A DNA stretch of 64,000 bases from Candidatus Latescibacterota bacterium (GTDB lineage: Bacteria; Latescibacterota; UBA2968; GCA-2709665), in assembly GCA_965205485.1 (NCBI GenBank), contig OZ242180.1, forward strand, positions 3,616,001 to 3,680,000. The letters run 5' to 3'. The notes beneath the pieces are model-generated. The model saw nothing but the letters and a program-made list of their open reading frames with translations. It was not told the DNA's origin and did not search any database. Positions 34,801 through 49,444 of this stretch are shown here, piece by piece; position 1 is the first letter of the stretch, and every line of letters starts with the position of its first letter. The position numbers were made by a program, and so were the translations under genes.

Positions 34801-34877
34801 CTCTTGTTTGAGAAGGGACCACCCAGGCCAGATGCTGCCATGAAATGTCCAATCTCAGATCGAGGAGAAGCGCGACA

Positions 34878-37319
34878 GTGAGCAACGCCAACCTGAACTG
34901 GATCGCGAACTATATCTGGGGAATCGCCGACGACGTACTGCGCGACCTGTACGTGCGAGGCAAGTACCGCGACGTGATCCTGCCGATGACCGTGCTGCGC
35001 AGACTCGACGCGGTACTGGAGGACAGCAAGCAGGCGGTCCTGGACATGCAGGCAAATCTCGATAAAATCGGTCTGGTCGACCAGGAGGAGCCGCTAAAGC
35101 AGGCAGCGGGACAGGACTTCTACAATACCTCCAGGTTCACCCTGCGCGACCTGCGCGCCCGCGCGAACCGCCAGCAACTCGAGGCCGACTTCAGGGCCTG
35201 GCTGGACGGGTTCTCCCTGAACGTCCAGGATATCCTCGAGAACTTCGAGTTCCGAAACCAGGTCTCCCGGCTTTCCAGGGCCGACGCGTTGGGGACGCTG
35301 ATCGAAAAGCTGACGTCACCTGATATCAACCTGAGCCCGGCCCCGGTGCACAACGGCGATGGTTCGGTCAGGCACTCCGGCCTCGACAACCACGGCATGG
35401 GGACGATCTTCGAGGAGCTGATCCGGCGCTTCAACGAGGAGAACAACGAGGAGGCGGGCGAACACTGGACCCCGCGCGATGCGGTGACGTTGATGGCGAA
35501 GCTGGTCTTCCTGCCCGTCGCTGATGAGATTACGTCCAGCACCTACCTGATCTACGACGGCGCGTGCGGTACAGGCGGCATGTTGACCGTGGCCGAAGAG
35601 GTCCTTCAGCAACTCGCCGCCGAGCGCGACAAGCAGGTCTCCACCCACCTGTACGGACAGGAAATCAATGCTGAGACCTACGCCATCTGCAAGGCCGACC
35701 TTCTGCTGAAGGGTGAAGGAGATGCGGCGGACAACATCGTCGGCGGCCCGGAGCATTCCACCCTGGCCAACGACGCCTTCCCGTCCCGAGAGTTCGACTT
35801 CATGCTCTCCAATCCGCCTTACGGGAAGAGCTGGAAGACTGACCTGGAACGCATGGGCGGAAAGAAGGAAATGCGGGACCCGCGGTTCGTGATCGAACAC
35901 GCGGACGATCCCGAGTATTCGCTCGTTACCCGGTCCAGCGACGGGCAGATGCTCTTTCTCGCCAACAAGTTGTCCAAGATGAAGGAGGGCGGCAGCCGCA
36001 TCGCTGAGGTGCACAACGGCAGTTCTTTGTTCACGGGTGACGCCGGGCAGGGCGAGAGCAACATCCGCCGCTGGATCATCGAGAACGACTGGCTGGAGGC
36101 GATCGTCGCACTGCCTCTCAACATGTTTTACAACACCGGCATCGCGACCTACGTGTGGGTGATCACCAACCGAAAACCGGAACATCGCCGGGGCAAGGTG
36201 CAGTTGATTGATGCCACCGAGTGGTACCGGCCGCTCCGCAAGAATCTGGGCAAGAAGAACTGTGAACTCGGCGAGGAGGACATCCGGCGCATCTGCGACA
36301 CATTCCTGGCCTTCGAGGAAACCGAACAGAGCAAGATCTTCGACAACGCCGCCTTCGGCTACTGGAAGGTGACGGTCGAGCGGCCGCTTCGGCTCGATGG
36401 GATCGACCCCAACCGCGCCTACAAGGCCTCTGAAATCAAGAAGTTAAAGGAGAGCAGTGAACGAAGCGAAACCGCGCCGCCCGTCATCAAGAGGGTCCAC
36501 AAGAGAGGCACGGAAGCTGACCCGCTGCGCGGCCGGTTCCAGGCTACTGTCGACGGCAGGCCCGTCGTGGTCGAGTACGAACCGGACACCGACCTGCGCG
36601 ACACCGAGCAGATTCCGCTGCAGGAAGAAGGCGGCATCGAAGCGTTCCTGGGGCGGGAAGTCCTTCCCTACGCCGCTGACGCCTGGTATCAAGCGGACAG
36701 CGTAAAAGTCGGCTACGAAATCAGCTTCACTCGATACTTCTACAAGCCCCAGCCCATGCGAACTTTGGAGGAAATCGGGGCGGATATTCTGGCGCTGGAG
36801 AAAGAGACTGAGGGGTTGCTGGGCGATCTTCCGATGGTGCGCGAACCGCCGGCTGTGTACGGCAAGCCGCGCATCTACGTGGATACCTCGGTGATCGGCG
36901 GGTGCCATGATGATGAGGTCCGTGAGGCGTCCATGGAGTTGTTCGAAAAGTTCAAGCTCGGAGATGCTATCCTCGTTTATTCCGATGTCATTCTCAGGGA
37001 ACTGGCGGCGGCGCCGGAAAGCGTGCGCCAGATGATCGATCAGATTCCCGCTGCAAACAAAGAGATGCACTTTCTCACGGATGAGGCAGAACGTCTTGCG
37101 GAAGCTTACATTGATTCCGGGGCTTTAGGCCTTGCGAACCGCGCTGACGCGGAGCATATCGCCCTTGCAACCCTGGCCGAGGCCGACGTTCTGGCAAGCT
37201 GGAATTTCAGGCACATGGTGAACTGGCGACGTAACCGGTTGTATAACTCAGTCAACCGGCAAATGGGGTACGCGGAGTTGAACGTCCTATCCCCGGAGGC
37301 AATCAGCTATGACAAATGA
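34878..37319 (+). CDS. hsdM: Type I R-M methyltransferase HsdM fused to a C-terminal PIN domain
   Basis: IWGIADDVLRD, GEHWTPRD, YDGACGTGGML, NPPY, usual HsdM end (LEEIGADILALEKETEGLL). The frame then continues into IYVDTSVIGG...ILREL...DAEHIALAT...SWNFRHMVN. GTG start after GAGGAG. Confidence 0.9.
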   Translation: MSNANLNWIANYIWGIADDVLRDLYVRGKYRDVILPMTVLRRLDAVLEDSKQAVLDMQANLDKIGLVDQEEPLKQAAGQDFYNTSRFTLRDLRARANRQQLEADFRAWLDGFSLNVQDILENFEFRNQVSRLSRADALGTLIEKLTSPDINLSPAPVHNGDGSVRHSGLDNHGMGTIFEELIRRFNEENNEEAGEHWTPRDAVTLMAKLVFLPVADEITSSTYLIYDGACGTGGMLTVAEEVLQQLAAERDKQVSTHLYGQEINAETYAICKADLLLKGEGDAADNIVGGPEHSTLANDAFPSREFDFMLSNPPYGKSWKTDLERMGGKKEMRDPRFVIEHADDPEYSLVTRSSDGQMLFLANKLSKMKEGGSRIAEVHNGSSLFTGDAGQGESNIRRWIIENDWLEAIVALPLNMFYNTGIATYVWVITNRKPEHRRGKVQLIDATEWYRPLRKNLGKKNCELGEEDIRRICDTFLAFEETEQSKIFDNAAFGYWKVTVERPLRLDGIDPNRAYKASEIKKLKESSERSETAPPVIKRVHKRGTEADPLRGRFQATVDGRPVVVEYEPDTDLRDTEQIPLQEEGGIEAFLGREVLPYAADAWYQADSVKVGYEISFTRYFYKPQPMRTLEEIGADILALEKETEGLLGDLPMVREPPAVYGKPRIYVDTSVIGGCHDDEVREASMELFEKFKLGDAILVYSDVILRELAAAPESVRQMIDQIPAANKEMHFLTDEAERLAEAYIDSGALGLANRADAEHIALATLAEADVLASWNFRHMVNWRRNRLYNSVNRQMGYAELNVLSPEAISYDK

Positions 37320-37506
37320 TACCGCAACCGAGAGATTCGATTGCATCCGTTTTGTGCGTGAGGTCCGTGCGAGGATTGCCGAAGAAACGGCCGGCATGAG
37401 CAATAAAGAGCGAATCCAGTACTTTCGCTCGTATCACTATGAAGACCCTGTTCTGGAACGACTGGCCGTGCCTTTGCGCGAATTGGACGAAGACGAAAGA
37501 GGGTGA
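37309..37506 (+). CDS. Small antitoxin-like protein, FDC paralog 1
   Basis: Overlaps the PIN stop by 11 nt. FDCIRFVREVRARIAEETAGMS..ERI.YF. Confidence 0.7.
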   Translation: MTNDTATERFDCIRFVREVRARIAEETAGMSNKERIQYFRSYHYEDPVLERLAVPLRELDEDERG

Positions 37507-37697
37507 ACCCTGATCAATGTCCTGAGGAGCAGCCGGCACCGCGTGACCGTACCGAGGGTTCGGGACTTGCGAGTTGAAACGCTTGACGGAATCATTGCCG
37601 ACGTCGTGAAGTTTCGTGGTCTGTCCAAACCGAAGTACGAGAAACTCTCTTTGGTTGACTCCAAGATCCCCAGCCTGAAGCCTTTTCCCGCAAAAAA

Positions 37698-37793
37698 GGA
37701 TTCCGGCGCTTCAGGGCATACAACGAGGTCAATCGTCAAAACGGATACCCCGCTATTGACATTCGCACGCCGGAGGAGATCCTCCATGGCTGA
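37698..37793 (+). pseudogene. Start-less C-terminal stub of a PIN toxin
   Basis: GFRRFRAYNEVNRQNGYPAIDIRTPEEILHG* aligns with the hsdM-PIN tail RRNRLYNSVNRQMGYAELNVLSPEAISYDK*. In-frame stop at 37656 and no start codon in between. Confidence 0.7.
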
Positions 37794-38001
37794 TGACACC
37801 CATAAAATAAAGAAATTCGACTGTGTCGAATTCATGCGCCAGGCCCGCGCCCGCATTACCGCCGAAACCGCCGATATGACTGCTGACGAACGGATAGAGT
37901 GGTTCAATTCGAAGCGGTATTCCGACCCCGTGCTGGAAGCAATGGCCGCGCGAATACGCAAATCGAATGAGGACAGGGCAACAGACAATCCTGACGGCTG
38001 A
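37786..38001 (+). CDS. Small antitoxin-like protein, FDC paralog 2
   Basis: MADDTHKIKKFDCVEFMRQARARITAETADMTADERIEWF...DPVLE. SD GGAGG, and it overlaps the PIN stub stop. Confidence 0.7.
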   Translation: MADDTHKIKKFDCVEFMRQARARITAETADMTADERIEWFNSKRYSDPVLEAMAARIRKSNEDRATDNPDG

Positions 38002-38468: not shown

Positions 38469-38702
38469 ATGAAGAATAAGAGCAACGCAAAGGCTTTCGA
38501 CTGCGTAAAGTGGACGCGCGAGGTCCGGGAGAGGATCAACGCGGAACTGGCGGGAATGTCCCCGGAAGAGCGGCGTCGGCGGCTCAACGCGGCTGTCCGT
38601 AAGGATCCCTACTTCGCTCGCATTCCGAAGTCCCGGGTTGTGCGACCCTGGCAGGACGATGGGGCAAGCGACGGCGGACGATCCGGCGCCGAGGGCCATT
38701 AA
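38469..38702 (+). CDS. Small antitoxin-like protein, FDC paralog 3
   Basis: AFDCVKWTREVRERINAELAGMSPEERRRRL...DPYF. Confidence 0.68.
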   Translation: MKNKSNAKAFDCVKWTREVRERINAELAGMSPEERRRRLNAAVRKDPYFARIPKSRVVRPWQDDGASDGGRSGAEGH

Positions 38703-38766: not shown

Positions 38767-38964
38767 ATGACCGATGAAGCCGCTGGCAAGAGATTCGATT
38801 GCATCCGCTTTGTGCGTGACGTCCGTGCGACGATTGCCGAGGAAACAGCCGGCATGAGCAATAAAGAGCGAATCCAGTACTTTCGCTCGTATCGCTATGA
38901 AGACCCTGTTCTGGAACGACTGGCGGCGCCTTTGCGCGAATTGGACAAAGACAAACGAGGGTGA
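38767..38964 (+). CDS. Small antitoxin-like protein, FDC paralog 4
   Basis: 54/65 aa identical to paralog 1 by hand alignment. Confidence 0.72.
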   Translation: MTDEAAGKRFDCIRFVRDVRATIAEETAGMSNKERIQYFRSYRYEDPVLERLAAPLRELDKDKRG

Positions 38965-39157
38965 ACCCCGATCTTTGCCCGGTCGAGTAGCCGGCGAGAA
39001 ACAGGGTTTGCACATTGGTTCGTACAAATCCGCCGCAACCAGACGCGTCAACGCCAGATTGGATTCGGCAATACATCGTGGATCACCCGGCCGGATGGTC
39101 TGAAGACCCGGAGAATCCTGACGCTAAGAATGGCCAAGACACCTGGAGGATATACAG

Positions 39158-39370
39158 ATGAGACGGAGCGGGATCATCTTCGAGGTAACTGAAGCGATTG
39201 AAGGCGGATACGACGCCAGAGCGCTCGGCCACAGCATCTTCACGCAGGGAGAAGACTGGAACGACCTGAAGGCGATGGTGCGAAATGCGGTGCGCTGTCA
39301 TTTTGACGACGAGAACATGCCACGAGTGATCAGGCTGCATCTCGTCAGAGTCGAGGCCATCGCGGTATGA
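39158..39370 (+). CDS. HicB-like antitoxin
   Basis: IIFEVTEAIEGGYDARALGHSIFTQGEDWNDLKAMVRNAVRCHFD. SD GGAGG. Confidence 0.7.
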   Translation: MRRSGIIFEVTEAIEGGYDARALGHSIFTQGEDWNDLKAMVRNAVRCHFDDENMPRVIRLHLVRVEAIAV

Positions 39371-39411
39371 AACTGCCCCGAGACGGGCGCCGAATTCGGG
39401 AGGAAATGGAA

Positions 39412-39735
39412 ATGACAGCGGAAACCCTGAATCAACATATTGAGATCACACCGGGCATTTCAGGCGGCAAACCGCGCATTGCCGGTCGTCGAATTGCCGT
39501 GGAGAATATCGTCATCTGGCACGAGCGCCTGGGCAAGAGCGCTGACGAAATCGCCAGTGATTACGATATTACTCTTGCGGATGTGTACGCAGCACTGGCT
39601 TACTATTTCGATCATCAGAATGAGATTGACCAATCTCTTGAGGAGAGTCGTGCATTTGTAGAATCCTTACGTCAGAAGTTCTCTTCGAAGATTTCCCAGA
39701 AGATTCAAGACCCGACCCAACATGGCAACGATTAA
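39412..39735 (+). CDS. DUF433 family antitoxin (in frame behind a MKLPRD HicA-like stub starting at 39367)
   Basis: HIEITPGISGGKPRIAGRRIAV...EIASDY.ITLADVYAALAYY. Confidence 0.85.
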   Translation: MTAETLNQHIEITPGISGGKPRIAGRRIAVENIVIWHERLGKSADEIASDYDITLADVYAALAYYFDHQNEIDQSLEESRAFVESLRQKFSSKISQKIQDPTQHGND

Positions 39736-40051
39736 GTTTTTGACCGATGAGAATGTTTCCAGAGCAGTTGTAATGGGGCTGCGACGTAGAGGTGTGGACG
39801 TACTGACTGTTGCCGAAGCGGGTAGTCGTGGAGCGTCTGACGAAGTAATTCTCGGAATTGCCGGGGAAACAGAACGCGTCATCTTCACGCAGGATGATGA
39901 CTTTCTTCGTCTTGCAGTAATTGTACATGACCACAGAGGAATTGTCTACACGTCTCAAGAAAATACGGTTGGTGAGATAATTCGTGGCTTGATGTTGATC
40001 CATCAGGTTCTGGAAGCGGAAGAGATGGTTGGGCATGTTGAATACCTGTAG
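39722..40051 (+). CDS. DUF5615 (Mut7-C/PIN-like) toxin
   Basis: FLTDENV...GVDVLTV...SDEVIL...IFTQDDDF...HRGIV. Overlaps the DUF433 gene. Confidence 0.85.
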   Translation: MATIKFLTDENVSRAVVMGLRRRGVDVLTVAEAGSRGASDEVILGIAGETERVIFTQDDDFLRLAVIVHDHRGIVYTSQENTVGEIIRGLMLIHQVLEAEEMVGHVEYL

Positions 40052-40217
40052 AACCCATCGAAATCTTGGCCAATTCAGACCTGTTTGTCGCCCACCGCAC
40101 GATTGCCTTGTACCTTGCGTTGGGCGCTGACGCTTGATTTCGGACGACCAGCGTCGAGCTCAACCACGAAATCAGCTTCACCCGGTTTAGTATAGCCCCC
40201 TCTTTGTAGGTGCCGGA

Positions 40218-41045
40218 ATGCCTTTTCCAGAACCACTCAAGAGAAGGGTCCGTGAACAGGCACTTTTCCACTGCTGTATATGCCAGAAGATATCTGTCAG
40301 TTTGGAAATCCATCATATCATCCCAGAAGCAGCAGGCGGGCCGGATACGGAGGATAACGCGGCACCACTATGCCCCGGCTGTCACGGTGATTTTGGAGGT
40401 AACCCGGAAAAGCGTTCTCGGATTCGAGAGATGCGAGATCGCTGGTACGATATATCCGAGAATTGTGTTATTGGATCCACAAGAAATCCAATGCCAGATT
40501 CTCTTGAAACTGATCGATATTCATTTGCCTGTGACGAGTTTGTCCATCCTCTGATTGTTCGTGAGTTGTTAGGATGGATTTCCGATACATCAGAGACGAT
40601 TGTTGGAGTGGATCTTGAATCGGCCAACACGAGCAATCGGTTCCATGGTGACTTCGAGATAGATGATCGCGATGGCAGAAAGTGGGTGAAGTGGAACGAA
40701 CCTGAGAGTGCCCGGAGAGGGTTTTTCAAATACGCACACATTGCGACTTCGCCAACCGGAGTTGAAATGGTGGAGTGCTACGATTGTGGTGGAGGTAGTG
40801 GCGTATTTGGAAGTGTTGGGCTATTCCTTATTGATCCAGATCGAGCTTTAGACGAATCTTGTTCAGGAAAAATACCCACGCGGGATCGCCAGGTGCTTAA
40901 GGTCCTCGGATCAGTTCGTTTGGGGGATAGATACGTTGGCGAGATTACGTACAATGATAAGATCCTTGCCATTAGTCCAGACGAGGGTAGGATCAGATCT
41001 CTCGGAAGCACTTCAGAGTCGTGCCGCAAGTACCGTATTTTATAG
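40218..41045 (+). CDS. HNH endonuclease with uncharacterised C-terminal domain
   Basis: CCIC...EIHHIIP...GGPDTEDNAAPLCPGCH. Lower GC than the flanks. Confidence 0.8.
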   Translation: MPFPEPLKRRVREQALFHCCICQKISVSLEIHHIIPEAAGGPDTEDNAAPLCPGCHGDFGGNPEKRSRIREMRDRWYDISENCVIGSTRNPMPDSLETDRYSFACDEFVHPLIVRELLGWISDTSETIVGVDLESANTSNRFHGDFEIDDRDGRKWVKWNEPESARRGFFKYAHIATSPTGVEMVECYDCGGGSGVFGSVGLFLIDPDRALDESCSGKIPTRDRQVLKVLGSVRLGDRYVGEITYNDKILAISPDEGRIRSLGSTSESCRKYRIL

Positions 41046-41098: not shown

Positions 41099-42532
41099 GT
41101 GCCCAATCCCATTAACCCATATCCTGCCTACAATCCTCCGAGTGTCGAATGGATCGGCGATGTGCCGGCGCATTGGGAAATTAGGCGACTCCGCACCGTC
41201 GCTGAGTTGCGTGTCAGTAACGTGGATAAGCACACTAAGGAGGGTGAAATTCCCATTCGGCTCTGCAATTACGCCGATGTGTACAAGAACGACCGTATCA
41301 CTTCGGCCATGCCATTCATGAATGCAACGGCTTCGCAGGGTGAAATCGAGAAATTCCATCTGAAGAAAGGTGATGTCCTCATTACCAAGGACTCAGAGAC
41401 TTGGGACGATATTGGGGTTCCCGCCCTGGTAACGGAGCCAGCCATGAACCTTATTTCTGGCTACCATTTGGCTTTGCTCCGGCCTTTCAAGGAGGCGATA
41501 GGGCCGTACCTGGCTCTGACGTTGCAGAGTAAGCCGGTTGCGTATCAGTTTCACGTGCGGGCGAATGGCGTAACAAGGTACGGCCTTACTCACGCTGGGA
41601 TCCAGTCCGTTCGTATCCCGCTCCCACCCCTCCTCGAACAAAACGCCATCGTCCGCTTCCTCGACCACGCCGACCGACGTATCCGGCGCTACATCCGTGC
41701 GAAGCAGAAGCAGATTGCGCTGCTGGAGGAGCAAAAGCAGGCTATTATCCACCACGCCGTCACGGGCCAGATCGACGTCCGAACCGGCCAGCCCTACCCG
41801 GCCTATAAGGACTCAGGTGTGGAGTGGCTGGTGGAGGTGCCGGTGCATTGGGCGGTACTTCCTCTGAAGAGGGCTTTTGGCTCTATGGAGTACGGAATCT
41901 CAGATTCGGGATCCGATGACGGCACTATTGGCCTGCTCACAATGGGGAACGTTCGTGACGGAACGGTAACGGTACCAACGTACGGCGGAGTCACCTCTGT
42001 TGATCCGACCCTGCTACTGCAGGACAAGGATCTACTCTTTAACCGCACAAATAGCCCTGATCTGGTAGCCAAAGTCGGTCTGTTTCGTTCCCAAGGGAGA
42101 CCAATAACTTTCGCTTCGTATCTCGTGCGAATGCGAACCGGCCCTGAAAACAGTCCAGAATACCTAAATCTGCTCTTGAACGATGTAGGCTTCGTGTCTG
42201 TCGCACGAAGAGCAGCAATTCCCAGTCTACATCAGTCGAATCTCAATCCAACCCGTTACGGTCGTCTGAAGATTCCACTTCCTCCTCAGTCTGAACAGGA
42301 GGCAATCGTCCAAGGTGTAACCGAGTGGTCGTCGGTCGTTAATTCTGCGATTGTGAAAACGAACCGTGAAATCGATCACTTACGCGAATACCGCACCCGC
42401 CTGATCGCCGATGTCGTCACCGGCAAGCTCGATGTACGCGATGCGGCGGCTGAACTACCTGAAGAAGACCTCTCGGGTGACGCAGAGGAATCGGCTGAAG
42501 AGTATAAAATCAAAACGGACTTGACCGTATGA
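41099..42532 (+). CDS. hsdS: Type I R-M specificity subunit
   Basis: Two TRDs, each preceded by PYPAY...VEW...VP.HW. IPLPPLLEQ / IPLPPQSEQ, LREYRTRLIADVVTGK. Confidence 0.92.
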   Translation: MPNPINPYPAYNPPSVEWIGDVPAHWEIRRLRTVAELRVSNVDKHTKEGEIPIRLCNYADVYKNDRITSAMPFMNATASQGEIEKFHLKKGDVLITKDSETWDDIGVPALVTEPAMNLISGYHLALLRPFKEAIGPYLALTLQSKPVAYQFHVRANGVTRYGLTHAGIQSVRIPLPPLLEQNAIVRFLDHADRRIRRYIRAKQKQIALLEEQKQAIIHHAVTGQIDVRTGQPYPAYKDSGVEWLVEVPVHWAVLPLKRAFGSMEYGISDSGSDDGTIGLLTMGNVRDGTVTVPTYGGVTSVDPTLLLQDKDLLFNRTNSPDLVAKVGLFRSQGRPITFASYLVRMRTGPENSPEYLNLLLNDVGFVSVARRAAIPSLHQSNLNPTRYGRLKIPLPPQSEQEAIVQGVTEWSSVVNSAIVKTNREIDHLREYRTRLIADVVTGKLDVRDAAAELPEEDLSGDAEESAEEYKIKTDLTV

Positions 42533-42780: not shown

Positions 42781-42989
42781 TAACTGTGGCCGCCGACACA
42801 ACCGGAATTGGACTTGAGTCGAAACAATTCGGTACACATTCCGCAGGAACCACCCGCGTTAACGCCCAATTGAAAGTCCACCGTTGAAAACTTCAACAAG
42901 ACTCATTTTAGTCCCTCGCCGCCACAAGTGTTGCCCATCGCCCGGCAAATGTTTATATTGTGTAACACAGAAACTGTGAGGATGTGACT

Positions 42990-43181
42990 ATGAGAAATAT
43001 TACCGTTTCCGTCGACGAAGAGACCCATCGGCTCGCCCGTATCCGTGCGGCAGAGTTGGACACGTCGGTATCGGCACTCGTGCGAGACTTCCTGAAGAAC
43101 CTGGCTGCCGACCGCGTCGGCGGAACAGCGGCCGCAAGGCAGGACGTTGAGTCCGCAGCCGAACGTCGTCGCGGGATGTAG
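42990..43181 (+). pseudogene. Truncated orphan RHH antitoxin, paralog of 44099-44461
   Basis: MRNITVSVDEETHRLARIRAAELDTSVS shared with the second copy. It stops early and has no PIN partner. Confidence 0.6.
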
Positions 43182-43323: not shown

Positions 43324-43566
43324 ATGATTGACTGGTCGAAATGCCCGGTCGTGGAGAGCGTGCCTGGGAAGGTGAGCGGGGCCTGGGTGTTCAAAGGAAC
43401 CCGGCTGCCGCTGTACGTCCTCTTTGAGAACCTTGCGGCGGGCGCGACCATCCACGACTTCATCGAGTGGTTCGGAGGTGTGGATGAATCGGAGGTGAAG
43501 GCAGTGCTGGAGCATGTGGCACAGGAGCTCCGTACAAGGGTGGTTCATGCGCATCCTGTTCGATAA
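43324..43566 (+). CDS. DUF433 family antitoxin
   Basis: IDWSKCPVVESVPGKVSGAWVFKGTRLP...FENLAAGATIHDFIEWF. Confidence 0.85.
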   Translation: MIDWSKCPVVESVPGKVSGAWVFKGTRLPLYVLFENLAAGATIHDFIEWFGGVDESEVKAVLEHVAQELRTRVVHAHPVR

Positions 43567-43882
43567 CGGGACACCCAGGCAGTTGCGCGTCCGGCTCTTT
43601 GGCCATGTCGTCGAAGAGGCCAGGGAACGCGGATGGGACGGTTTGGCCAACGGAGACTTGCTGGACCGTGCTGAAGAATTCGGCTTCGATGTCTTGATCA
43701 CGACCGACCAAAGCATCCAATATCAGCAGAACATGCCAGACAGACAGGTGGCCGTGGTTGTCTTGATGCAAACCGCTTGGCCGCGCATCTCGCAGAGAAC
43801 GGAAGCCATCCGCGTTGCATTGGACGAAATCCAGCCCGGCGAAGTCCGGGAAGTCCACATCCCGGCGATAGGCGAAACATAG
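43547..43882 (+). CDS. DUF5615-like PIN toxin
   Basis: MRILFDNGTP...NGDLLDRAE..FDVLITTDQSIQYQQN. Confidence 0.8.
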   Translation: MRILFDNGTPRQLRVRLFGHVVEEARERGWDGLANGDLLDRAEEFGFDVLITTDQSIQYQQNMPDRQVAVVVLMQTAWPRISQRTEAIRVALDEIQPGEVREVHIPAIGET

Positions 43883-44098: not shown

Positions 44099-44461
44099 AT
44101 GAGAAATATCACCGTATCCGTCGACGAAGAGACACATCGGCTCGCGCGCATCCGTGCGGCAGAATTGGACACGTCGGTATCGTCCCTCGTGCGAGACTTT
44201 CTGAAGAGTCTGGCAGAGAACCCGGACACGGATGGCGAATCCGGTTCCGGGTCTGTCGAAACCATCTATCAGCGTCGGTGCAGGCTGCTGCGGGAAGTGC
44301 TCGCGGACTTCGATAGACAGGGCATCGGGTTGCGGATGTCCGACAACCTTCCCAGGGAGGCGTTGTACGATCGCAACGCGGCAAGGGCCGAAGCTGTCGC
44401 CGAGCGGGAGCGGCAGCGCAGTATCTCCGAAGCACTCGGATCCTCACCATGCGATTCGTAG
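44099..44461 (+). CDS. Ribbon-helix-helix antitoxin (VapB-like)
   Basis: MRNITVSVDEE...VSSLVRDFL RHH pattern, LPREALYDR tail. Overlaps the PIN gene. Confidence 0.75.
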   Translation: MRNITVSVDEETHRLARIRAAELDTSVSSLVRDFLKSLAENPDTDGESGSGSVETIYQRRCRLLREVLADFDRQGIGLRMSDNLPREALYDRNAARAEAVAERERQRSISEALGSSPCDS

Positions 44462-44874
44462 ATACCAACATTCTGCTGTATGCTGTCAGCGAGATCCCGG
44501 AGGAGGCCGACAAGCGGGCGCGGGCGGCGGAAGTCCTGACGGAACCCGACCTCGCTGCGTCCGTTCAGGTGCTGCAGGAGTTCTACCACCAGGCCACCCG
44601 GCCGACTCGAATCGGCAGTCTTTCTGGCAATAAAGCATTGCAATTCCTGGAGCCGATTCTGCTTTTTCGGATTCAGACCATGTCGACGGACGTATTTCTC
44701 AATGCCATTGCCATTAGCCGACGATTTCGCCTTTCCTACTGGGATGGCGCAATTCTCGCCGCAGCCCGTGCCTTGGGCTGCGATGCCGTGTACTCCGAGG
44801 ATTTGAGCACAGAACAGGACTACGACGGCCTCCGGGTCATCAATCCGTTCACGCACCAACAGGCTCCGCAGTGA
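44449..44874 (+). CDS. VapC-family PIN toxin
   Basis: FVDTNILLYA, SVQVLQEF, LSYWDGAILAAA, YSEDL, INPF. Confidence 0.9.
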   Translation: MRFVDTNILLYAVSEIPEEADKRARAAEVLTEPDLAASVQVLQEFYHQATRPTRIGSLSGNKALQFLEPILLFRIQTMSTDVFLNAIAISRRFRLSYWDGAILAAARALGCDAVYSEDLSTEQDYDGLRVINPFTHQQAPQ

Positions 44875-47872
44875 ACACAGACACCACCGAGAGCGGGCTT
44901 GAACGCCTGATTTGCGCCGCCCTGACAGGCCAGGGTTGCGAGCCGCCTGTTTCAGGCACCGTGGGAGAACCGCCCGCCGGTTACGGCGGTGTCGGCTGGA
45001 GCTGCGGCAATCACCACGACTATGACCGTGAGTTCTGCGTCGATCTGGCGCAGCTGTCGGCATTCCTGCACGCCACCCAGCCGGAGGCCGCCGAGGCGTT
45101 GCCGCTTTCTGAAGACGGTCCCGTGCGGCGCGCATTCCTGACCCGTCTCCAGGGCGAAATCAGCAAGCGCGGCACCATCGACGTGCTGCGCAACGGGATC
45201 AAGCACGGAGCGTTGAATCTGGACCTGTTCTACGGCACGCCGTCGGCCGGCAATCCGCAGGCACAGGAATTGTTCGAACTGAACCGGTTTACCGTTACGC
45301 GACAGCTTCGCTACAGCCGGGACGATGCGCAGCGGGCGCTGGACATCGGGCTGTTCATCAACGGGCTGCCGGTGTTCACGTTCGAGTTGAAGAACAGTCT
45401 CACCAAACAGACGGTGGACGATGCGGTCTGGCAGTACAAAAAGGACCGCAACCCGCGTGAAAAGCTGTTCGAGTTCGGGCGGTGCATCGCGCACTTCGCG
45501 TTGGACGAACGCGAGGTGCGTTTTTGTACGCACCTGAAGGGGAAGGCGTCCTGGTTCCTTCCCTTCAACCGCGGCTGGAACGACGGGGCGGGCAACCCGC
45601 CCAATCCGGACGGTCTTTCAATCGCCTATCTCTGGCGCGAAGTCCTCACCCGGGAGAGTCTCACCAACATCCTCGAGAATTACGCGCAGGTGGTGGCGTC
45701 GAAGGACGAAAAGAGCGGAAGGCAGCGAAAGACTCAGATCTGGCCGCGCTACCATCAACTCGACGTGGTGCGCCGCCTGCTGGCCGACGCGGGCGACCGC
45801 GGCGCCGGTCAGCGCTACCTGATCCAGCACTCCGCCGGCAGCGGCAAGAGCAACTCCATCGCCTGGCTCGCGCACCAGTTGATCGGACTGGAGAAGGACG
45901 ACGCTCCGGTCTTCGACTCGATCATCGTCGTCACCGACAGGGTCATCCTGGACCGTCAGATCCGCGACACGATCAAGCAATACGCCCAGGTGGCGGCAAC
46001 GGTCGGACACGCCGACCGCTCGGGCGATCTTCGTGAGTTCATCGAAAGCGGGAAGAAGATCATCATTTCCACGGTCCAGAAGTTTCCGTTCATTCTGGAC
46101 GAGATCGGCAATGAACAGCAGGGGAAGCGCTTCGCCATCATCATCGACGAAGCCCACTCGAGCCAGGGGGGTCGTACCAGCGCGGCGATGGCTCAGGCGC
46201 TGTCGGAGGCAGGCGAAGAGGACGATCAGGATACCTTCGAGGACCGGATCAACCGCCTGATGGAGTCGCGCAAGCTCCTGCCCAACGCCAGCTACTTCGC
46301 GTTTACCGCCACGCCGAAGAACAAGACGCTCGAGATCTTCGGCGCTCCGGAACCGCAGCCGGACGGTTCGGTGAGGCATCGCGCCTTCCACAGCTACACC
46401 ATGAAGCAGGCGATCCAGGAAGGATTCATCCTGGACGTACTGTCGCACTATACGCCTGTGGCGAGCTACTACAAGCTTGCCAAGACGGTTGAAGACGACC
46501 CCGAGTTCGACGCTCGAAAGGCGCAGAAGAAGCTGCGCCGCTTCGTGGAGGGCAGCGATCACGCGATCCGCCTGAAGGCCGAGATCATGGTCGACCACTT
46601 CCACGACCAGGTGCTGAAGCAGGGCAAGATCGGCGGCGCGGCGCGGGCGATGGTGGTCACGAACGGCATCGAGCGCGCGATTCAGTACTATCACGCCATC
46701 CGCGACTATCTCAAGGAGCGCAAGAGCCAATTTGAGGCGCTGGTCGCGTTCTCCGGCGAACACGACTTCGGCGGCGGCAGGGTAAGCGAGGCGTCGCTGA
46801 ACGGCCTGCCTTCGGCCCAGATCGCCAGGCGATTTCAGGAGGATCCGTACCGGTTCCTGGTGTGCGCGGACAAATTTCAGACCGGCTACGATGAGCCCCT
46901 GCTGCACACCATGTACGTAGACAAGACGCTGTCCGGCATCAAGGCCGTGCAGACGCTGTCTCGCCTCAACCGGGCCCACCCGAAGAAGCACGACGTGTTC
47001 GTTTTCGACTTTCTCAACGACACCGATACGATTCAAGACGCGTTTTCTGACTTCTACCGGACGACGATTCTGGCCGATGAGACCGACCCGAACAAGCTGC
47101 ACGACCTGCAGGCGAACTGGACGGACCCCAGGTCTATTCTGAAACGCAGGTCGACGAGTTTGTGCGGCTCTATCTGGAAGGGGTGGAACGCGACCGGCTG
47201 GATCCTATTCTGGACGCTTGTGTCGCGGTCTATCGACACGACCTTGACGAAGACGGCCAGGTTGCATTCAAGGGCAACGCCAAAGCATTCGTGCGTACGT
47301 ACGCCTTTCTTTCGTCCGTGCTTCCGTATAACGTTGCCGAATGGGAAAAACGTTCGATTTTCCTGAACTTCCTGGTGCCGAAGTTGCCGGCGCCCGAGGA
47401 AGAGGACCTCTCCAAGGGAATCCTGGACGCGATCGATCTGGACAGTTATCGGGTGGAGAAGCGGGCGATGCAACGGATCCTGTTGGAGGACGAAGATGCC
47501 GAGATCGATCCGGTACCGGGTTCAGGGGGAGGGCATCAACCGGAGCTGGAATTGGATCGACTTTCCAACATCATTCGGGAATTCAACGATAACTATGGGC
47601 ATATTAAATGGGCAGATGAAGACCGTGTACAGCAACTCATCGTCGAGACAATTCCCGCCCGCGTCGCCGCTGACACCGCGTTCCAAAACGCCCGGGTAAA
47701 CTCCGACCGGCAGAATGCACGGATCGAACACGACAAGGCGCTGCTGCGCGTGATGACCGCCATGATGAAGGACGACACCCAGCTATTCAAGAATTTCATG
47801 GACAATCCTGGCTTTAAGCGCTGGATGACTAACAAGGTGTTCGGACTTGCGTACAATCCGGTAGAGAGGTAA
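44871..47872 (+). pseudogene. hsdR: Type I restriction endonuclease HsdR with a 1-nt frameshift near 47115 (real or sequencing error)
   Basis: DIGLFINGLP..FELKN, QHSAGSGKS, DEAH, FTATP, QTLSRLNR. At GCG-AA-CTG-GAC the homologous reading (LDGPQVYSETQVDEF) moves to the frame of ORF 47162-47872. Confidence 0.85.
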
Positions 47873-48577: not shown

Positions 48578-49444
48578 ATGAACAAGAGGTATGCCCCTGT
48601 AGAGAGGTGCATCTACTGCGGTACAAACGAAGGACCTCTTGGTGACGAGCACATTGTCCCGCTTGCGCTCGGTGGCCGACTAATCCTGCCTAAATCAAGT
48701 TGTAGAGATTGCGAGAAGATAATAAATCGTCAGGTCGAAGGGCCAATCTTACAGAGTGAATGGGGAGATTTCCGGATTAAACACAATTTTCCGACGCGAA
48801 ACAAGAAAGGTCGACGTTCTACATCCGAGTTACGTCGGCCCGACGGATCGAAAATGCGCATTCCCATCCGCGAACACGCAACGCCTGTTCCTTTATATCA
48901 ATTCCGGGATGCACGTTTACTTTCAGGAGGTCAGGCTCGCGAAAACGACTTTACAGTATCCATGCTTGCAAGTCACACAGACGAAATGGCGATGCAGAAG
49001 AGGCATGAAGAGTGGGACCGTACGCATACATTCGTGGCTGAGCCATACCGATTTGCTCGATGGATCGCGAAGATTGCATATAGCTATGCAGTTGCAGAAC
49101 TCGGAGGAAGGTTGTTCATGCCTCTTGTTACTGATGTGATTCTTGGGAAATCCGAAGACGTTCTGTCCATCGTCGGAGGATCCAAGTCTCCGCACAAAGG
49201 AACTCTTTCTGGAACAATCGAAGTAAAGACCAGCTTTCAAATTGAAGTACGAACAGCGCAATATGGTATGGGATTGGTAGGACTCTTGATCGTACACGTG
49301 CAATTGCTAGAACCGTTAGCGATACCCTCGTACCACACTGTGGTTGGCATCATTGACTTTGCGAATCCCCATCATTGCGAGGAATTCGAAAAATTCCGCG
49401 TGCAGCATCGATGGCAGCCAAATGAAATTGGAGGAAGTGCGTAG
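48578..49444 (+). CDS. HNH (HNH_5-like) endonuclease domain protein
   Basis: CIYCG...DEHIVPLALGG...SCRDCE, then AKIAY. Low GC. Confidence 0.75.
   Translation: MNKRYAPVERCIYCGTNEGPLGDEHIVPLALGGRLILPKSSCRDCEKIINRQVEGPILQSEWGDFRIKHNFPTRNKKGRRSTSELRRPDGSKMRIPIREHATPVPLYQFRDARLLSGGQARENDFTVSMLASHTDEMAMQKRHEEWDRTHTFVAEPYRFARWIAKIAYSYAVAELGGRLFMPLVTDVILGKSEDVLSIVGGSKSPHKGTLSGTIEVKTSFQIEVRTAQYGMGLVGLLIVHVQLLEPLAIPSYHTVVGIIDFANPHHCEEFEKFRVQHRWQPNEIGGSA

Follow-up and report, generated by a model that had tools for sequence, protein, structure and literature searches.

What is a toxin-like nuclease domain doing at the end of a DNA methyltransferase? The question is raised by a 64,000-nucleotide stretch of contig OZ242180.1 (positions 3,616,001 to 3,680,000, forward strand) of the Candidatus Latescibacterota bacterium assembly GCA_965205485.1, hereafter the window. 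Here an hsdM gene, encoding the methyltransferase subunit of a type I restriction-modification (R-M) system, continues in frame into a predicted VapC-type PIN domain and is followed by a small overlapping gene, which we call the partner. An initial annotation of this DNA had pointed out the fusion and recognized no named system in it. We favour the reading, at a probability of about one half, that the PIN domain and the partner form a toxin-antitoxin-type cassette tied to HsdM, with addiction or the exclusion of other alleles as its effect and perhaps abortive infection as well. The most unusual feature of the locus is that this cassette is swappable and is accompanied by orphan copies.

A single reading frame for HsdM and its C-terminal extension

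The fused protein is encoded by a single open reading frame on the forward strand (34845..37319), 824 residues long when counted from ATG 34845, with which the residue numbering used throughout begins. Relatives of 812–814 residues align from residue 12, so that GTG 34878, the start taken in the initial annotation, is the likelier true start. Pfam recognizes HsdM_N in residues 20–156 (E value 3.3e-19) and N6_Mtase in residues 182–494 (E value 1e-52), and the PADLOC MTase_I model matches the fused frame with an E value of 1.4e-237; the NCBIfam hsdM model gives 94.4 bits and so falls short of its equivalog cut-off (242.75). Both the S-adenosylmethionine (SAM) motif (DGACGTGG) and the NPPY motif (within SNPPYG) are readable in the translation, and hsdS and hsdR genes stand in the same operon, in accordance with the earlier view of a complete type I HsdM. 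In addition to these two families, Pfam returned only a weak Eco57I match for the frame and no secretion-related domain, and no ATPase or HEPN profile of Pfam or PADLOC matched it. Same-genus comparisons give a ratio of nonsynonymous to synonymous substitution rates (dN/dS) of 0.06–0.07 for hsdM.

The HsdM part ends in ...EKETEGLLGDL and passes through LPMVREPPAVYGKP into RIYVDTSVIGG... with no stop codon between. The two parts are joined by a 13-residue linker, modelled with low confidence (predicted local distance difference test, pLDDT, of 66 across the first 10 residues of the model), of which the element 'vREP' is retained in most fused proteins. The linker also contains an internal methionine (M664, ATG 36834), upstream of which the sole purine-rich stretch lies about 19 nucleotides away. 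M664 is a leucine in the closest relative, P0002, and is present in just 56 of 121 fused proteins, so that separate initiation of the PIN domain is not a general feature and the alternative raised at the outset, that the domain is made solely from this codon, is not supported. Contigs from four sequencing runs tile positions 36300–37700 and cover the junction; the runs represent at most two samples from one study, probably the source sample, and are thus not independent. The read check over the junction that had been proposed came out in favour of the fusion: record 2 of run X1 (36594–36886) and record 12 of run X2 (36686–36886) bridge it with no differences, and no indels are listed. Among the RNA runs, one (X22) contains a small portion of the stretch.

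The extension has a predicted VapC-type fold

Since direct family assignment of the tail failed, its identity is drawn from its homologues and its fold. A homology search with the tail yielded 883 proteins, mostly of about 152 residues and free-standing; this was a short-length search, and some of the matches are fragments. Some of them carry the source names 'PIN domain protein' or 'VapC family toxin', and among 94 aligned homologues PF01850 is matched by 53, PF13470 by 39 and PF16289 by 22. The AlphaFold (AF2) model of the domain, built on the homologue alignment, has a pLDDT of 94.6 and a predicted template modelling (TM) score of 0.88. With this model Foldseek found 17 PDB matches at E values of at most 1e-3, mostly VapC/FitB toxins, with TM scores (target) of 0.56–0.68 and root-mean-square deviations of about 4 Å; the VapC toxins 3zvk, 5ecw, 5wzf and 5x3t give 0.64–0.66, and the top-ranked chain, 9oq8_C, is the cyclodehydratase RohQ and not a VapC. 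By homology and by model, the tail is a VapC-type PIN domain, and it is predicted to be a nuclease.

Seven residues (D680, S682, E719, H771, S785, W786 and N787) are invariant in all 121 fused proteins, and D768 is conserved in 119 of them. In the secondary structure of the model, D680, E719 and D768 sit at the end of strand 1, in the helix after strand 2 and in the D..H.A helix, respectively, which, mapped by eye, we take to be the positions of the first three PIN acidic residues. These three residues and the VapC-like fold are compatible with the acidic PIN pattern that had been read from the translation, although no profile matches the tail directly. The element SWNFRH, counted in that pattern, is conserved as S785-W786-N787-F788-x-H790, almost invariant across the 121 proteins, but it is a motif of this particular family, with Asn and His near the place of the usual fourth acidic residue. 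The dN/dS of the PIN domain is 0.18–0.21, which, with the lower value for hsdM, places the whole polypeptide under purifying selection. We note that the PIN query has one other match in the genome, a protein of 155 residues (G000:C1:1094791-1095237) that is 27% identical; no partner-family gene was found beside it.

Distribution and age of the fusion

As the search that the initial annotation had called for shows, proteins pairing N6_Mtase or HsdM_N with a PIN domain recur. A search limited to proteins of 453–1442 residues gave 121 matches, of which 120 are listed; all 120 listed clusters (525–920 residues) consist of N6_Mtase with a C-terminal PIN domain of this family, and most also have HsdM_N. 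A good number of them are on contigs that run to millions of bases, and several phyla are represented. Five of the 120 are named, as 'N-6 DNA methylase' or 'type I restriction enzyme M protein', and since these records are labelled as methylase alone, the toxin domain goes unseen in annotation. An all-against-all search of representatives added a further, diverged full-length fusion (P0166, 774 residues).

Within the genus, the genomes of 40 relatives contain 12 HsdM orthologues, counting that of the window, with identities to it of at least 92% (92–97%). Nine of the 12 are open frames of 827–835 residues, which makes eight in-frame fusions besides that of the window. The other three (L102, L103 and L104) are unfused, at 662–674 residues, and have retained hsdS and hsdR. 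A PIN remnant, 'CWNFRQMVNL', stands directly after hsdM in L102 and L103, and the three orthologues are secondary losses of the PIN domain.

These counts bear on the possibility that the fusion is an artefact or a pseudogene, in which a stop or the frame was lost by assembly error or the PIN domain comes solely from ATG 36834. Such an origin could appeal to short gene calls of 186–278 residues that start inside the hsdM end (P0002–P0010), and to L004, in which hsdM is split across three frames. The sequence of P0002 recurs in an orphan unit of L094 (see below), which accounts for that short call, and L004 is a frameshifted fusion. Together with the 120 listed clusters, the eight further fusions in the genus, the indel-free contigs over the junction and the patchy occurrence of M664, this leads us to reject an artefact or frameshift origin, which is largely refuted and hardly credible.

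A tree of the 121 fused and 93 free-standing PIN domains, a quick FastTree reconstruction and as such less reliable, requires 7 changes between the fused and the free-standing state, compared with 64–78 when the labels are shuffled, and one split (support 88) holds all 121 fused and 7 free-standing domains. Both features suggest that the PIN variants diversified mainly inside the fused lineage. In P0363, P0368 and P0370, HsdM is about 41% and the PIN domain about 50% identical to the window's, which suggests that the domain has also become attached to a second, distant HsdM lineage.

The single clade is also what one would expect if the fusion were a passenger. A toxin-first module would then have come to lie behind hsdM, the hsdM stop would have been lost, and the fusion, itself neutral, would have spread with a highly mobile HsdM lineage, the module acting like any other selfish toxin-antitoxin pair. 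Recombination within the first PIN codons (see below) preserves the frame automatically, PIN loss is tolerated, and the operon is so full of toxin-antitoxin-like pairs (DUF433-DUF5615 twice and one RHH-PIN pair, RHH standing for ribbon-helix-helix) that such modules seem to land here often; PIN genes in type I operons have been reported before (PMC5499597, in the portions covered). Yet the three fused proteins with an HsdM of about 41% identity imply that the fusion is old, or arose or moved repeatedly, and it has been kept over more than 100 clusters from several phyla with its catalytic-type residues invariant. We consider a neutral passenger unlikely.

A small gene linked to the PIN domain

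The partner gene begins inside the PIN coding end, overlapping the PIN stop by 11 nucleotides, and the coupling seen in the window extends far beyond it. We examined the best 80 of about 600 genome loci found with the PIN profile, which come from many bacterial phyla and some archaea. With a partner profile made from the window's four copies alone, a homologue was found just after the PIN gene and on the same strand in 60 of the 80 loci, and after two rounds in 77; it lies within 60 nucleotides of the PIN gene in 75. The two-round profile found no partner beside the PIN gene in L036, L057 and L067. HsdM is part of the PIN reading frame in six of the 80 loci and in one additional, frameshifted locus, and is absent from it in 73. 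The downstream linkage and the lack of a family for the partner indicate that the two genes form a widespread, unnamed, toxin-first module. Natural fusion proteins of the two, in the orders partner-PIN and PIN-partner, also exist (P0129 and P0173).

The partner family has a nearly invariant motif, K-x-F-D-x-V-x3-R, and the model of the window's copy consists of three helices (pLDDT 86.5). Predicting the complex of the PIN domain with the partner gave a score of 0.85, and one control with an unrelated partner gave 0.82, which speaks neither for nor against binding.

These loci weigh on another explanation, that the PIN domain is a nuclease of the restriction enzyme itself, acting for example on DNA flaps, R-loops or phage transcripts where the methylase core is bound, with the small protein as an assembly factor or regulator and not an antidote. 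PIN-like folds do include DNA flap nucleases, and the covered portions of PMC5499597 raise PIN nucleases as possible restriction modules while stating that this was not shown. The operon, though, already has an hsdR gene with an HSDR_N nuclease region, the PIN domain and its partner do without an hsd gene in the same reading frame in 73 of the 80 loci, and the allelic swapping and orphan partners described below fit conflict systems, not a core part of an enzyme. An enzymatic role of this kind is very unlikely.

The PIN domain and its partner are exchanged together

The HsdM and PIN halves of the fusion differ sharply in their conservation. Over residues 1–500, HsdM is 74–97% identical to the window's in 117 of the 120 clusters (and about 41% in the remaining three), whereas the PIN domain is 47–63% identical in 116 of them and 89–92% in four. 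The transition can be located in a DNA alignment of eight same-genus relatives with the window. Identity is 80–98% in nearly all hsdM bins and remains at 71–91% along the linker and over roughly the first 25 codons of the PIN domain. Near position 36945 it drops to 47–60%, a level that extends over the PIN core and the partner in six of the eight relatives; in the other two, L097 and L098, it stays at 87–93%. In comparisons of L097 and L098 with the window, the synonymous divergence (dS) is 0.245 in the PIN domain and 0.56–0.64 in hsdM. The two halves thus have different histories, which argues for recombination and not for fast drift.

Four PIN types can be distinguished in the genus: A (window, L097 and L098), B (L096, L099, L100 and L101), C (L094) and D (L095). 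Every PIN type comes with a separate partner type, and PIN identity correlates with partner identity at r = 0.96 over 45 non-independent pairs.

Contigs of runs X1–X4 have loose ends at positions 36904 and 37233 that branch where the PIN domain turns variable and resemble other PIN variants; several cassette types thus seem to coexist in the sample or samples.

Orphan partners, truncated PIN domains and hsdM fragments

The window contains four paralogous partner genes, of which copies 2–4 are 37–83% identical to copy 1 (Table 1). Compared with the partners cognate to the PIN domains of sister strains, copy 2 is 85% identical to that of L096, whose PIN domain is type B (dN/dS 0.26, from few changes), and copy 3 is 91% identical to that of L095, whose PIN domain is type D. 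Before copy 2 lies a truncated PIN domain, detected by tblastn (45% identity over residues 127–159, E value 5.6e-5) and by a hidden Markov model (E value 1.3e-8). Its end, ...NGYPAIDIRTPEEI, resembles the PIN variant of P0003/P0004, and since the type-B copy 2 follows, we assign it to type B. In the window's orphans the PIN parts are thus truncated and the partner reading frames intact, as expected if an unmatched PIN domain were harmful and a partner harmless or useful.

All eight relatives have extra partner copies, PIN stumps or both between hsdM-PIN and hsdS, and in five of them clear fragments of the hsdM 3' end (codons ~604–661) lie at the equivalent relative place; the window has a weak remnant of this kind. 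In L094, HsdM-PIN and its partner, both of type C, are followed by an intact unit of hsdM codons 604–661, a full type-A PIN domain and a type-A partner, an apparent intermediate. The orphan PIN domain of this unit is 97–99% identical to the expressed ones of L097 and L098, with a dN/dS of 0.17 against the window's.

Second units also occur in two other phyla. In L008 (6802–7455) and L019 (7168–7833), a fused hsdM-PIN gene is followed by a second PIN-like unit in frame with a partner copy, and the second copy of L008 is degenerate (YADLS and TWCGRL in place of YVDTS and SWNFKH); orphans thus decay outside the genus of the window as well.

A further element recurs among the fragments. Positions 39015–39161 of the window hold what remains of the C-terminus (...YIVDHPAGWSEDPENP...) of a gene that in relatives (L094, 5432–6172; L104, 2536–3285) either directly adjoins a fragment of the hsdM 3' end or is joined to it in one frame. 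This RAYT-like gene has a weak Y1_Tnp/IS200-like match (E value 7e-4, below the cut-off), and such genes or their remnants take the place of the PIN domain after hsdM in all three unfused orthologues. RAYT-like genes may drive the rearrangements of the locus.

A proposed mechanism and its alternatives

In the toxin-antitoxin reading that we favour, a single polypeptide would comprise a working type I methyltransferase subunit, a flexible linker and a VapC-type PIN nuclease, and the 65-residue gene, expressed through its own ribosome-binding site from the shared mRNA, would encode a cognate neutralizer of the antitoxin or immunity kind. One HsdM lineage would have captured a free-standing PIN-partner module as a C-terminal fusion. 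Recombination in the conserved 3' end of hsdM and the opening ~25 codons of the PIN domain would then import new pairs of PIN domain and partner, and the displaced units would accumulate downstream, where their PIN parts would be deleted and their partner genes persist. As long as it is supplied, the partner would bind the PIN domain and silence the nuclease. In VapBC and FitAB, antitoxin arginines reach into the acidic pocket of the toxin, and the near-invariant Arg of the partner could do likewise. If the supply stopped, through loss or replacement of the locus or through phage shut-off of host expression, the putative nuclease would cut RNA and growth would stop. A restriction locus or allele of this kind would be hard to lose or displace, with abortive infection as a back-up. 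The analysis establishes the fusion, the PIN fold, the conservation of catalytic-type residues, the linkage of the partner and the structure of cassette and orphans, and from these nuclease activity, toxicity, neutralization and trigger are inferred; the cassette polymorphism, the co-replacement of PIN domain and partner and the orphan arrays fit a toxin/antidote pair, and they do not separate a guard from an addiction function.

Several observations count against this reading. The tail has no Pfam match even at E values up to 10 and none in NCBIfam or PADLOC, and phmmer and profile searches of the PDB with it gave nothing meaningful. Mapped by eye on the alignment, the fourth acidic PIN position seems to be replaced by Asn/His (N787/H790). 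The partner belongs to no family in Pfam, NCBIfam or PADLOC, its model has no PDB match at E values of at most 0.001 in Foldseek, its Atlas clusters are unnamed, and it lies downstream of its toxin, unlike VapB. Its dN/dS of 0.38–0.51 rests on 7–18 substitutions per class. The unfused L102 and L104 show no partner copy, which indicates that loss of the PIN domain is tolerated. The related genomes, many of them metagenome-assembled, are not independent samples. Finally, an unfused toxin-antitoxin pair next to hsdM would be equally addictive, which leaves unexplained why the fusion is kept.

It is on this last point that a guard akin to PrrC would do better. The PIN domain would be silent within the HsdM2S1(R2) complex, whether or not the partner takes part, and a phage anti-restriction protein (a DNA mimic such as Ocr or ArdA, or a Stp-like peptide) that binds or distorts the complex would release it allosterically and trigger abortive infection, the diversity of PIN domains and partners reflecting an arms race. 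The single feature for which a plain toxin-antitoxin pair in the neighbourhood offers no explanation is the covalent tether to HsdM; the fusion outlasts cassette swaps with its linker motif largely kept, the locus encodes a complete type I system, and PrrC in EcoprrI provides the precedent, so far as the covered portions of its literature describe it. The PIN family, however, is mostly a free two-gene module without HsdM (about 120 fused clusters against the 883 short-length matches), is rare on viral contigs (10 loci in a search with the PIN profile, by which no phage-borne mimic of the partner was seen), and orphan partners of types not resident at the locus would be of no service to a guard. 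We judge a guard of this type improbable.

A bolder reading would make the locus an intracellular polymorphic toxin-immunity system built on a restriction enzyme. VapC-type PIN domains act as dimers. The domain might accordingly be active only in a certain assembly state of HsdM2S1, in which two HsdM tails pair their PIN domains, and might fire upon disturbance by an anti-restriction protein or upon displacement of the resident hsdM allele by a rival one; orphan partners would be an immunity library, and the orphan hsdM'-PIN-partner units silent, switchable cassettes. We offer this tentatively, as a possibility that is doubtful at present. If it were true, it would be a new way to guard and to diversify an R-M system.

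Relation to known systems

In line with the initial annotation, which had recognized no named system, we found no openly searchable full-text paper that describes an HsdM-PIN fusion; subscription-only papers lay outside this search. A close precedent, and the classic guard, is PrrC, which is thought to be held latent in EcoprrI by association with the Hsd complex (portions of PMC3710099 and PMC3506569) and is treated as a guard also in part of bioRxiv 10.1101/2024.01.29.577857. Like PrrC with its type Ic enzyme, the PIN domain would be an RNA-directed suicide nuclease genetically tied to a type I R-M system, its activity being predicted here. PrrC, as far as those sources describe it, combines an ABC-ATPase head and a HEPN nuclease in a protein of its own and lacks a small partner, whereas the PIN domain is covalently fused to HsdM, has its own downstream partner and is polymorphic. 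Since neither ABC-ATPase nor HEPN domains were found, the locus is not of the PrrC type.

With VapBC the locus shares a predicted VapC-like fold, conserved Asp/Glu/Asp positions, an adjacent small co-oriented partner and a wide, patchy distribution. It differs in its toxin-first order, in a partner that has no RHH, AbrB, PHD or helix-turn-helix domain and no profile or structure match, in the SWNF-H family motif, and in having the toxin domain fused to a 661-residue enzyme. Because position and fold of the partner differ, this is not VapBC proper.

Transcriptional coupling of PIN toxin-antitoxin genes to hsdM, hsdS and hsdR was described by Matelska, Steczkiewicz and Ginalski in 2017 (PMC5499597), as separate genes and with no known direct interaction between toxin-antitoxin and R-M components; in the text portions covered, which do not include Supplementary Figure S7, a fusion is not mentioned. 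The window's DUF433-DUF5615/PIN_10 pair is of the DUF433-PIN_10 kind found in the type I operons of that paper, again judged from these portions. That type I operons harbour suicide nucleases and toxin-antitoxin pairs is already known, and crosstalk with the enzyme is understood for PrrC only. Here the effector is itself a piece of HsdM, and a single protein therefore suffices to test directly how immunity is linked to suicide or addiction.

The closest parallels to the cassette itself lie elsewhere. CdiA-CT/CdiI and Rhs systems possess orphan toxin-immunity modules and export their toxins to kill neighbours. The present locus resembles them in its conserved body with a variable C-terminal toxin, in the sharp junction and the cognate small gene downstream, in orphans that keep a piece of the conserved region, and in spare immunity-like genes that match toxins of sister strains. 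HsdM, in contrast, is a cytoplasmic enzyme with no secretion-related Pfam domain (signal peptides were not specifically predicted), so that any conflict has to take place inside the cell. Until now, the swapping of allelic cassettes together with arrays of orphan immunity-like genes has typified exported polymorphic toxins, and its occurrence here points to an intracellular conflict among restriction alleles, mobile elements or phages.

In phase-variable type I systems with silent hsdS cassettes, it is the DNA-recognition part of HsdS that is reshuffled, and the agent is usually a site-specific recombinase. As in these systems, recombination among tandem partial copies within a type I operon alters a module of the enzyme; unlike in them, the module swapped is the toxin domain of HsdM with its partner, and no recombinase gene was identified, only weakly Y1-transposase-like (RAYT-like) genes or their remnants lying nearby. 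We file HsdM-PIN and its partner as a combination of two themes: effectors of toxin-antitoxin or abortive type that are nested in R-M systems, and polymorphic toxin-immunity cassettes. Apart from HsdM, the PIN domain and the partner constitute an uncharacterised, very widespread toxin-first module of bacteria and archaea, in which the partner has no family name.

Neighbouring genes of the operon

The features of the locus are collected in Table 1. The order of hsdM, hsdS and hsdR is the same in the relatives, and the three genes make up a complete type I system.

Table 1. Features of the hsdM-PIN locus and its neighbours, in window coordinates
Feature	Positions	Strand	Remarks
HsdM part	34845..36827	+	Residues 1–661; likelier start GTG 34878
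Linker LPMVREPPAVYGK	36828..36866	+	Residues 662–674 (13 residues), from the translation
PIN domain (predicted), cassette type A	36867..37319	+	Residues 675–824 and stop (TGA 37317–37319)
GGAGG ribosome-binding site	37295..37299	+	In the PIN coding end, 9 nucleotides before ATG 37309
Partner copy 1	37309..37506	+	65 residues; cognate to the fused PIN domain; predicted neutralizer
Orphan PIN stump	37683..37781	+	Last ~33 residues of another PIN domain
Orphan partner copy 2, type B	37786..38001	+	49% identical to copy 1
Orphan partner copy 3, type D	38469..38702	+	37–40% identical to copy 1
Orphan partner copy 4, type A-like	38767..38964	+	83% identical to copy 1
70-residue reading frame (MRRSGIIFEVTEAIEGGYDARALGHSIFTQGEDWNDLKAMV...)	39158-39370		Conserved in L102 (2808-3071) and L104 (3443-3769)
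DUF433 gene	39367-39735		E value 6.9e-19; overlaps the next gene by 14 nucleotides
DUF5615/PIN_10 gene	39722-40051		E value 1.6e-20; pairs with the DUF433 gene 39367-39735
Weak hsdM 3' end remnant	40114..40203	+	Residues 607–636; tblastn 43% over 30 residues, E value 0.036
HNH-domain protein	40218-41045		HNH, E value 2.8e-9; between the toxin-antitoxin pairs and hsdS
hsdS	41099..42532	+	Pfam Methylase_S, E value 5e-16
Truncated RHH duplicate	42984-43181		Copy of the FitA-like RHH gene
Second DUF433 gene	43324-43566		E value 2.2e-10; between hsdS and hsdR
Weak DUF5615-like partner	43514-43882		E value 0.007; beside the second DUF433 gene
Weak FitA-like RHH gene	44015/44232-44461		Precedes the PF01850 PIN gene
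PF01850 PIN gene	44449-44874		E value 2.5e-11; its end overlaps the hsdR start at 44871
hsdR	44871..47366	+	Pfam HSDR_N, SWI2_SNF2, ResIII, T1R_D3-like
HNH-domain protein	48578-49444		HNH_5, E value 2.6e-7; after hsdR

The operon contains at least four toxin-antitoxin-like units. Judged by family matches, the FitA-like RHH gene and the PF01850 PIN gene next to hsdR are a classical VapBC-like pair. The 70-residue reading frame has no match in Pfam, NCBIfam or PADLOC; in L102 and L104 its homologue is followed by a reading frame of 350 residues that is absent from the window. A DUF433/DUF5615-like pair between hsdS and hsdR is found in L103 and L104 as well.

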